IMG/VR virus record: IMGVR_UViG_3300044822_000051
Location: 1 to 51,590 of that record
Source: a virus
Taxonomy: Duplodnaviria > Caudoviricetes
DNA: 51,590 bases
Direction: 5' to 3' (one strand)
This document shows, piece by piece, positions 21,081-21,833 of the stretch (the stretch's first letter is position 1; every line of letters starts with the position of its first letter). A model generated the notes under the pieces. That model worked only from the letters and a program-made list of their open reading frames with translations, had not been told where the DNA came from and did not search any database. A program made the position numbers and the translations under genes.

Positions 21081-21833
21081 ATGAAACGAGAGATGTTGGA
21101 TAAACTGATTAGGTTGATTTGCGCGGCTACGCCTGATTGGTCGCCTACGCAGCGTGAGCAATGTAATAAGCTCATAAAGGATCTGCGCGACATGTGCCCG
21201 AGTGTTGAGGAGTTGGCCCATGCGGCGAAATCTAAGATTGACTGGGCGAATCAGGTTAACATGGGTTCGGTGGCCAAGGCCGAAGCGTCGTCCCCGAATG
21301 CTGCCGAAATGGCCAAGGGTGAATCGCCGCGACCCCATTTGGAGTTGGCTGAAGAACTCCATGCAGTGCGTCAAGAGCTCAACTTGTGTAAGGCGCGGGC
21401 CGTAGCGGTTGATGATGCGCAGAAGGAGTTGGCCCGAGTGGTCGGTGTTAACCGTGAGATTGACCGTGCACGGGATGCTTTGGCCAAGGAGTTGGCCCGA
21501 GTGGTACAGACGAGTGGTACAGAGTTGGCCGAATCTAAAAAGTGGGCAAGCCGATTACAGGAAGAGTTGAATGTTGCGATTGCGAACAAGAATGACTACC
21601 GCTTCGAACGGGAGAAGTTGGCTGAAGAACTCGATGCAGTGCGTCAAGAGCTAGACATAGCGCACCGCACACTCGCCAGCAAAAATGAAGAGTTGGCAGA
21701 GTTCAAGAAATTCGTCGAAGATTTGAGTGAAGATCTGCCATCGTCGTATTCCGCGGGAGCTAAGATATGGGTCAAATGTCAAAAATATGGGCTGAAGTGG
21801 CGCGGCGTGCCTCAGGTGCCCTACTACGCCTGA
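21081..21833 (+). CDS. Coiled-coil moron protein with internal repeats and a capsid-identical peptide
   Basis: GAGGAG RBS; ELAEEL/KELARVV repeats; KIDWANQVNMGSV shared with the major capsid. Confidence 0.85.
   Translation: MKREMLDKLIRLICAATPDWSPTQREQCNKLIKDLRDMCPSVEELAHAAKSKIDWANQVNMGSVAKAEASSPNAAEMAKGESPRPHLELAEELHAVRQELNLCKARAVAVDDAQKELARVVGVNREIDRARDALAKELARVVQTSGTELAESKKWASRLQEELNVAIANKNDYRFEREKLAEELDAVRQELDIAHRTLASKNEELAEFKKFVEDLSEDLPSSYSAGAKIWVKCQKYGLKWRGVPQVPYYA

Follow-up and report, generated by a model that had tools for sequence, protein, structure and literature searches.

The virus record IMGVR_UViG_3300044822_000051, which is complete at 51,590 bases, has direct terminal repeats (1-127 = 51464-51590) and forms, over its whole length, the window analysed here, raises the question of why one of its accessory proteins contains a peptide identical to part of the phage's own major capsid protein (MCP), and whether this peptide serves to imitate the capsid. 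The protein is encoded by an open reading frame (ORF) among the head genes, designated ORF250, which a preliminary description had taken for a moron gene whose product displays a capsid peptide, possibly as a decoy for a capsid sensor or as an inhibitor of head assembly in related phages, with an in-frame capsid fragment captured from a relative as a further option. With a probability of about 0.55, ORF250 is a helical coiled-coil accessory gene that has been remodelled by templated duplications, and the capsid tract is part of a conserved helix and not a mimic. The elements on which this reading rests are the following:

21081-21833, plus strand: ORF250, 250 amino acids, in the slot between the MuF-like and portal genes.
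21210-21272, plus strand: MCP-like stretch of 21 residues (ELAHAAKSKIDWANQVNMGSV) in predicted helix 3 of ORF250, including the high-identity patch at 21234-21272.
27398-28435, plus strand: MCP gene, 345 amino acids, representing the source family of the patch.
27836-27874, plus strand: the patch as it stands in the capsid gene (MCP residues 147-159).

The 13-residue identity reported in the preliminary description was borne out by coordinates and translation, the peptide KIDWANQVNMGSV occupying residues 52-64 of ORF250 (21234-21272) and residues 147-159 of the MCP (27836-27874). The underlying DNA is identical at 36 of 39 nucleotides (nt), and the three differences (GCG/GCC, GTT/GTC and GGT/GGC) are all synonymous third-position changes, as had been stated. 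The similarity described upstream of the peptide, in different codons, was also recovered: BLASTP aligned residues 44-64 of ORF250 with 139-159 of the MCP (17 of 21 residues identical, E 5e-8 for the pair), whereas only 12 of the 24 nt to the left of the patch are identical, and no similarity was found to its right. As judged from the sequence, what ORF250 and the MCP share is confined to 39 nt of DNA with sharp edges, a patch and not broad homology. Identical codons are used at 10 of the 13 positions (P = 0.022 under independent codon choice from the genome's usage), which means that the two copies have a common DNA ancestry and are not convergent. When ORF250 was searched against its own genome, only itself and the MCP site were returned. 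The upstream likeness (ELAHAAKS against ELARMAEA) is better explained from within ORF250, in which ELA is a recurring unit: [E/K]-L-A occurs seven times and is always written GAG/AAG-TTG-GCN, TTG accounting for 21% of Leu codons genome-wide, whereas the MCP encodes ELA as GAA CTT GCG.

Three wider relationships between the two proteins were considered and rejected. Broader homology was discarded as BLASTP gave only the 21-residue match, a second one of 8 residues (QKELARV against QRELARM) having an E value of 1.7. A paralogue or truncated copy of an HK97-fold MCP was discarded as only residues 44-64 align, PHROGs gave no family and the structural model is all-helical. The derivation of the whole coiled coil from a repeated capsid tract (ELAR...IDxA units; 21235-21247 against 21457-21469, 11/13) was not significant.

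The MCP itself was identified by its match to phrog_264 ('major head protein', E 1e-61) and to solved capsid proteins (9b40, E 3e-23; 8frs, E 8e-22), and 55 related loci were collected through it, at 36-80% identity. Among all these MCP genes the phage's own is nearest to the ORF250 patch (36/39), compared with 34/39 for the best of the 55 relatives (L003) and at most 32 for the others. The captured in-frame capsid fragment envisaged in the preliminary description is thus the reading favoured by the evidence, with the phage's own MCP gene in place of a relative's as the nearest source. The lead is narrow, since even the DNA of this MCP region changes slowly: the phage's own MCP gene shares 35/39 with L003 and L007 at the patch. 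In a conservation ranking of 333 windows across 26 distinct relatives (at least 66% identity), the patch window of the MCP took rank 132 for residue conservation and rank 41 for synonymous codon identity, so that nothing sets the patch apart within the MCP gene. The idea that the shared nucleotides reflect an RNA or DNA element gains no support for the same reason, the capsid patch being no outlier for synonymous conservation (41/333). No second copy of the patch coding sequence was found in other IMG/VR phages, where three contigs matched with one copy each, all in the MCP.

ORF250 is very rare. A protein of 298 amino acids with 56% identity (P0002) was its sole homologue among 5.8 billion proteins, and a search of 1.84 billion representatives returned two weak coiled-coil matches at E ~1e-4 and none below 1e-4. 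No homologue was found in the phage database, in IMG/VR or in the genome collection, and a scan of Joint Genome Institute (JGI) metagenomes yielded five loci only, all through the MCP site. Searching the 55 related loci with tblastn gave seven matches, all at the capsid site, and the gene is encoded by none of them; in five near-complete relatives, ORF250 likewise matches only their MCP. The gene was found on contigs of four other metagenome runs (coded X2-X5), with which comparison is restricted to the parts of the window covered by the contigs; no RNA data set was among the runs listed. The second record of X2 (1,723 bases, as long as the contig recorded for P0002) starts at 20967 and reaches the portal gene across the ORF250 homologue, which shows that the gene keeps its place in a run whose capsid DNA differs from that of the window at 100 of 684 bases (~15%). 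The frame of the homologue is open despite a net length difference of 117 nt, an insertion of 21 nt and 12 nt of deletions. The characterization of ORF250 as a repeat-built, largely helical accessory gene thus holds as a description, given its absence from relatives, its repeats and its AlphaFold2 helices.

The contigs also define where the patch was broken and rebuilt. X2, X3 and X4 all cease to match the window at 21261, inside the patch, and X3 and X4 continue beyond it as T-D-P-L-R-P-F-A-K-G (frame read by hand), whereas P0002 reads ...ELAHAAKSKIDWANQINTEASRPFAKGDRVRV..., with 31 extra residues in the alignment with ORF250. The ORF250 family therefore has the first 28 nt of the patch in common (KIDWANQ[V/I]N), while its final 11 nt, which complete the Met codon and add G-S-V, are specific to the window phage. 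The preliminary description had looked to homologues for the peptide, and the outcome is divided: its first part is kept and what its last 11 nt encode is not. P0002 has KIDWANQIN where the window has KIDWANQVN, and capsid proteins with QIN exist (P0032, P0039, P0042). Separately, residues ~62-125 of P0002 (RPFAKGDRVRVTKPF...GTVEEV...VAFAGVGTMWV) stand opposite a low-complexity linker of ORF250; this stretch looks by eye like a small beta-rich domain, and no Pfam family matched it. Three further features belong to this rearranged region:

21262-21419, plus strand: phage-specific segment of 158 nt, beginning with the last 11 nt of the patch; X2 has 275 nt in its place (joint 21261 to 21420).
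21343-21652, plus strand: repeat-built helical region.
20818-20896, plus strand: copy of 79 nt (95%) of the MuF interior at 20592-20670, read in another frame and forming the last 30 MuF codons.

The internal repeats listed in the preliminary description were confirmed. A repeat of 37 nt links 21343-21379, within the 158-nt segment, to 21616-21652 (36/37), and one of 20 nt links 21423-21442 to 21486-21505 (20/20), 63 nt apart; the 158-nt segment also holds an internal 20-nt repeat (21271-21290 and 21310-21329, 80%). In X2, the first 11 letters of the 21-nt insertion repeat the sequence right after it. Upstream of ORF250, the similarity of the MuF-like protein to its relatives ends at about residues 333-346 of 365, and the 79-nt copy ends 12 nt before the start of the promoter cassette described below; this duplication is, from its position, best described as a recombination scar at the edge of the ORF250 unit. 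Judging from these repeats, ORF250 evidently evolves by small in-frame templated duplications.

The following course of events is proposed. An ancestor of the ORF250 family would have copied at least 28 nt of its lineage's capsid gene (KIDWANQ[V/I]N), in frame, into a helix-forming N-terminal part, the likely route being template switching or short-patch gene conversion. Later, in the simplest account of the window phage, a repair event would have used the 28-nt homology to copy 11 more capsid bases, after which the gap would have been filled with copies of ORF250's own sequence and a segment (275 nt in the homologue) removed. The tract would then survive as part of the best-conserved N-terminal helix and not through imitation of the capsid. 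In all likelihood ORF250 forms a coiled-coil oligomer that is co-expressed with five other small genes under operator control and presumably expressed apart from the surrounding head genes.

Structure prediction of the peptide in both contexts, as suggested in the preliminary description, placed it in a helix in each. The AlphaFold2 model of ORF250, built from a two-sequence alignment, is all-helical (mean predicted local distance difference test score, pLDDT, 60.4), with helices at 2-15, 22-38 and 42-62, a disordered stretch at 63-84, long helices at 85-144 and 149-217, and a short C-terminal one at 225-235 that adjoins the conserved CQKYGLKWRG; the patch falls at the end of helix 42-62. In the MCP model (pLDDT 55.4, 29 sequences; 41-64 in the patch region), residues 147-159 open the longest predicted helix (149-172), following a strand at 129-134 and a short helix at 137-145. 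From HK97-fold topology, helix 149-172 is taken here to be the 'spine' helix of the P domain.

Database searches with ORF250 are in keeping with a coiled coil. PHROGs assigned it to no family, and Pfam, PADLOC, a protein atlas, Foldseek (BFVD) and a sequence search of the PDB returned only coiled-coil-type or sub-threshold matches, with atlas scores of at most 0.88 and no Foldseek match at E <=0.001. No match to an anti-defence or scaffold family was obtained. An SMC-like defence protein (JetC, LmuB) was considered and rejected: the PADLOC matches (E 1e-4 to 7e-3) lie only on coiled-coil arms of models of 582-1365 positions, and ORF250 has 250 residues and no ATPase match. A relationship to the scaffold was rejected too, a BLASTP match between the C-termini covering 9/27 residues at E 0.01 and hhalign against the scaffold-family profile (alignment A4, 18 sequences) giving a probability of 0.04% and E 0.87.

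The constraint on the peptide was assessed by comparison with P0002. Residues 1-61 contain 14 differences, none of which falls within 38-58; such a clean run has P = 0.011 for the pre-specified residues 44-58 and P = 0.016 for a run of this kind anywhere. No longer invariant run than 38-58 exists in the N-terminal domain, where the 27 positions from 11 to 37 contain 12 of the differences, and over the longer range the invariant runs between the two proteins measure 30, 21 and 16 residues. The evidence that the peptide is constrained is modest, and the conserved run and the synonymous-only pattern would be explained equally by gene conversion, by mosaic recombination between variants or by the recency of the copy.

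Several signals mark ORF250 as a gene in its own right. GAGGAG stands 10 nt before its ATG as a Shine-Dalgarno sequence, and its GC content at the three codon positions (0.60/0.40/0.59) resembles that of the neighbouring genes, at an overall G+C of 53.0% compared with 56.7% for the genome. The open frame across insertions and deletions, the codon GC, the Shine-Dalgarno sequence and the conserved place together indicate that ORF250 is a real, maintained and lineage-restricted gene. Its flanks contain the following features:

20908-20946, plus strand: putative promoter-operator cassette, with TTGCAG (20914-20919), a 17-nt spacer with the imperfect palindrome ACTGACGGCCCAGTCAGT, and TATACT (20937-20942).
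20972-21103, plus strand: small cysteine-rich ORF of 43 amino acids (7 Cys), lying downstream of the promoter and running over the start of ORF250.
21847-21875, plus strand: 11-pair hairpin (loop of 7 nt) that lacks a plus-strand T-run and overlaps the portal start codon (21871).

The cassette starts at the MuF stop codon and its 39 nt are 90% complementary to 32555-32593. The genome contains six such cassettes in all, with the consensus TTGCAA-ACTGACGGCGCCGTCAG-TATACT, the spacer of which holds a perfect 18-nt palindrome, ACTGACGGCGCCGTCAGT. The five others all lie on the minus strand (11744-11795, 16398-16449, 16764-16815, 17174-17225 and 32551-32602), the ORF250 copy being the only one to face the plus strand, and they precede scattered small genes without a Pfam match, some of them antisense to structural genes. 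At the 17174 cassette, an ATG follows only ~7-10 nt past the second hexamer, which would give a nearly leaderless mRNA. The palindrome was found in one of five relatives, G001 (two sites with two mismatches each). Since the ORF250 promoter copy belongs to a family of six, the gene appears to belong to a regulon that spans the phage genome and not to stand alone.

Other observations concern the leader and the downstream hairpin. The 43-residue ORF starts ~30 nt past the second hexamer of the cassette, a terminator-like hairpin (20983-21000) crosses it, and it had no family match; it could be a leader peptide or an attenuator. An Rfam search of 20700-22000 gave no match. A perfect 12-nt inverted repeat (21023-21034 and 21852-21863) flanks ORF250, its downstream arm lying in the hairpin at 21847-21875. 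The 11-nt core of this repeat is exact only at these two sites and has four near matches, a number reached in 13 of 100 shuffles, and 12-nt inverted-repeat pairs are expected, by our own estimate, at ~0.03 per kb; the repeat could represent long-range mRNA pairing, a cassette boundary or chance.

A number of points weigh against the proposed explanation. That the tract is a structural helix and not a mimic is the default and not a result, and the clean run at 38-58 is as readily explained by a peptide with a function as by one with a structural role. A rough calculation gives P ~0.03 for synonymous-only differences if the ORF250 copy drifts and the MCP copy accepts synonymous changes only. The order of events (28 nt, then 11) is inferred from the P0002 protein and the contig break-points, and the reverse order, in which 39 nt are ancestral and the homologues were truncated on gaining an insert, is equally compatible with them. 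The ORF250 model is of low confidence (pLDDT 60.4, alignment of two sequences). As to expression, the operator promoter claimed in the preliminary description is present as one of six cassette copies, but a generic sigma-70 consensus scan called no promoter in 20700-22100; this copy has a weaker first hexamer (TTGCAG) and two palindrome changes, and no terminator with a T-run was found 3' of ORF250.

The closest competitor in content is a functional mimic of the capsid helix, which is possible if unlikely. In such a case the N-terminal domain would present the first half of the long P-domain helix of the MCP on a coiled-coil stalk, either as a decoy occupying a host defence protein that recognises unassembled capsid protein, or as a competitor for the partners of the helix (scaffold, protease, cement or neighbouring subunit), for example against co-infecting relatives. 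This would accommodate the retention of the peptide in P0002, the X3 and X4 contigs being at least 80% like the window up to 21261, as well as the invariance of residues 38-58 in an otherwise variable N-terminal domain, the synonymous nature of all three differences from the MCP, and the phage's own MCP being the closest DNA match. The promoter copy, shared with a family of accessory genes, makes expression apart from the capsid gene possible, and capsid peptides and proteins are known triggers of defence (PMC3014915; PMC9712102). However, only 13 residues are common to the two proteins and 9 in the homologues, amounting to about half a helix; the patch part of the MCP is not specially conserved (132/333 windows, 26 relatives); no other IMG/VR phage has a second copy (three contigs, all MCP); and ORF250 matches no anti-defence or scaffold family. 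In the folded capsid protein the patch helix presumably packs against the rest of the P domain, as HK97-fold topology would have it, which also counts against a mimic. The synonymous-only pattern and the margin of 36 over 34 of 39 are statistically weak and would be expected too from a recent copy or gene conversion, and the patch ends exactly at the rearrangement break-point, which points to a mechanical origin. A decoy or assembly-inhibitor function of ORF250 would, on this evidence, be rather improbable.

The mechanical origin of the patch could also be the whole story, the patch being a by-product of recombination with no role, its apparent conservation a matter of recency or of overwriting gene conversion, and ORF250 as a whole under weak or no selection. 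The rarity of the gene and the duplication scars that fill the region agree with this, as does the rate of change, 14 of 61 N-terminal residues differing against 29 of 295 bases over 20967-21261, which by a rough estimate is near the neutral expectation; moreover, an identity of 28-39 nt is about the length usable by homologous recombination systems. Such a relic is nevertheless improbable, for the frame is open across at least three larger insertions or deletions, all multiples of three, blocks of 30, 21 and 16 residues are invariant, the place before the portal gene is kept in a phage with ~15% different capsid DNA (100/684), and the gene is equipped with a ribosome-binding site and a promoter copy of its own. 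Capture of the fragment from another phage's capsid gene at co-infection, with the synonymous differences reflecting the divergence of two capsid genes, is very improbable. The capsid family is diverse enough to provide a donor (55 IMG/VR loci and 2125 homologues with E up to 1e-60), the 24 nt upstream of the patch reach 17/24 in the MCP genes of some relatives compared with 12/24 in the phage's own, and ORF250 has ELAHAA where most relatives have ELARAA and its own MCP ELARMA; yet none of the 55 relatives surpasses the phage's own MCP at the 39-nt patch (34 against 36), the upstream likeness is what shared residues alone give, ELA being ORF250's own repeat unit, and the last 11 nt arose within the lineage of the window phage.

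The surroundings of ORF250 comprise a head module in which the genes follow the order MuF-like, ORF250, portal, DUF2213, scaffold-like, cement, MCP and cement:

14416-15369 and 17258-19054: terminase-like genes (Pfam/PHROGs).
19813-20910, plus strand: MuF-like gene, 365 amino acids.
21871-23499, plus strand: portal gene.
23496-24257: DUF2213 gene.
25401-26204: scaffold-like gene, matching the C-terminal part of phrog_2229 and adjoining a protease-like gene.
26220-27359: cement-like gene on the upstream side of the MCP gene.
28437-29000: cement-like gene on the downstream side of the MCP gene.

The replication genes of the phage include those for an Enc34-type single-stranded DNA-binding protein, DUF2800, a helicase and an NrS-1-like primase-polymerase, with a weak match, below cutoff, to a family A DNA polymerase among them. 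Pfam or PHROGs scans of 36 ORFs revealed no integrase, so that there is no indication of the lysogenic expression that characterises classic morons. In the window phage and in G001, the MuF-like gene comes before the portal gene and the portal gene directly before DUF2213, whereas the 28 related loci in which both genes are visible all have the portal gene ahead of the MuF-like gene, which itself stands directly before DUF2213; the head module has therefore been rearranged in the sub-lineage of the window phage. In G001, whose MCP is 80% identical, the MuF-to-portal slot contains ~5.4 kb of other genes. The MuF-portal slot is a variable slot of the head-gene block.

Some other parts of the window are also of note. 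Between the DUF2213 and scaffold-like genes lies a stretch of ~1.1 kb (24298-25302) where relatives such as L004 have ~96 nt; it includes a minus-strand gene (24518-25096, 192 amino acids) with an HPPCGRW motif that belongs to phrog_12600, of unknown function (E 3e-47), and had no match in Pfam or PADLOC. A direct repeat of 69 nt (10480-10548 and 12722-12790, 97%) surrounds a 2.2-kb block of small minus-strand genes, and this pair may represent a regulatory region that was duplicated, or else mark the two ends of a cassette. About seven tandem copies of a 33-nt unit (31758-31992, 79% matches) lie within a minus-strand ORF (31687-32145, 152 amino acids), which would thus encode an 11-residue protein repeat and stands downstream of one of the operator-promoter copies.

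If the explanation by templated duplication is correct, ORF250 provides a small and clean example of accessory-gene growth and remodelling in which tracts of a few dozen bases are copied in frame from nearby genes as templates, with a break-point defined to the base by sister variants. It would also mean that two unrelated proteins of one virus can gain an identical peptide, which calls for caution where mimicry is inferred from short identities. The bolder possibility, that ORF250 is an undescribed counter-measure or competition factor displaying a maintained copy of the phage's own capsid spine helix, is doubtful; it is just as doubtful that it would soak up a capsid-sensing defence before capsid accumulates, or poison the head assembly of co-infecting relatives, and that the copy would be kept matched to the capsid through gene conversion by the MCP gene. 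If true, it would be, to our knowledge, the first case of a phage with a decoy copy of its own capsid epitope, and self-derived peptides in accessory genes would offer a route to anti-defence proteins and to the capsid surfaces read by defences.

ORF250 can be compared with several known systems. The Gol peptide of the T4 capsid protein gp23 (29 residues with a 20-residue core) is recognised in a system with the Lit protease (PMC3014915), and the capsid protein of SECPhi27, as a whole, triggers CapRel (PMC9712102). A capsid stretch or a whole capsid protein serves there as the trigger of a defence, which is the premise of the decoy reading of ORF250. In both systems, however, the recognised sequence is in the capsid protein itself, and nothing ties ORF250 to a defence system. 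A further candidate precedent for a decoy (10.64898/2026.01.04.697583) was set aside, 'decoy' there referring to mass-spectrometry databases only. In the literature, as judged by titles and the beginnings of abstracts, no report was found of a phage with a second, displayed copy of a capsid peptide as a decoy.

Scaffolding proteins, the delta domain of HK97 and satellite redirectors of capsid size such as CpmB or Sid are helical or coiled-coil proteins, encoded within the head module or close to it, that act by binding capsid protein. ORF250 is similarly helical and lies within the head module, but the phage already has a scaffold-like gene (25401-26204) and its relatives assemble the same kind of head without ORF250. 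Phage morons, a concept that stems from lambdoid phages and HK97, are independent accessory transcription units between conserved late genes. ORF250 resembles them as an extra gene between conserved head genes that is absent from relatives, has a promoter copy directly upstream and is slightly lower in G+C; it differs in that its promoter is one of a family of six, all with a palindromic operator, that no clear terminator stands 3' of it, and that no integrase was found in the 36 ORFs scanned. Finally, phage genomes are mosaics formed by illegitimate or short-homology recombination, and the window phage shares with them sharp identity boundaries, local duplications and a rearranged gene order; the tract in ORF250 differs from the usual mosaic joint in that it is very short (39 nt), has its source in the same genome, and was placed in frame inside a coding region.

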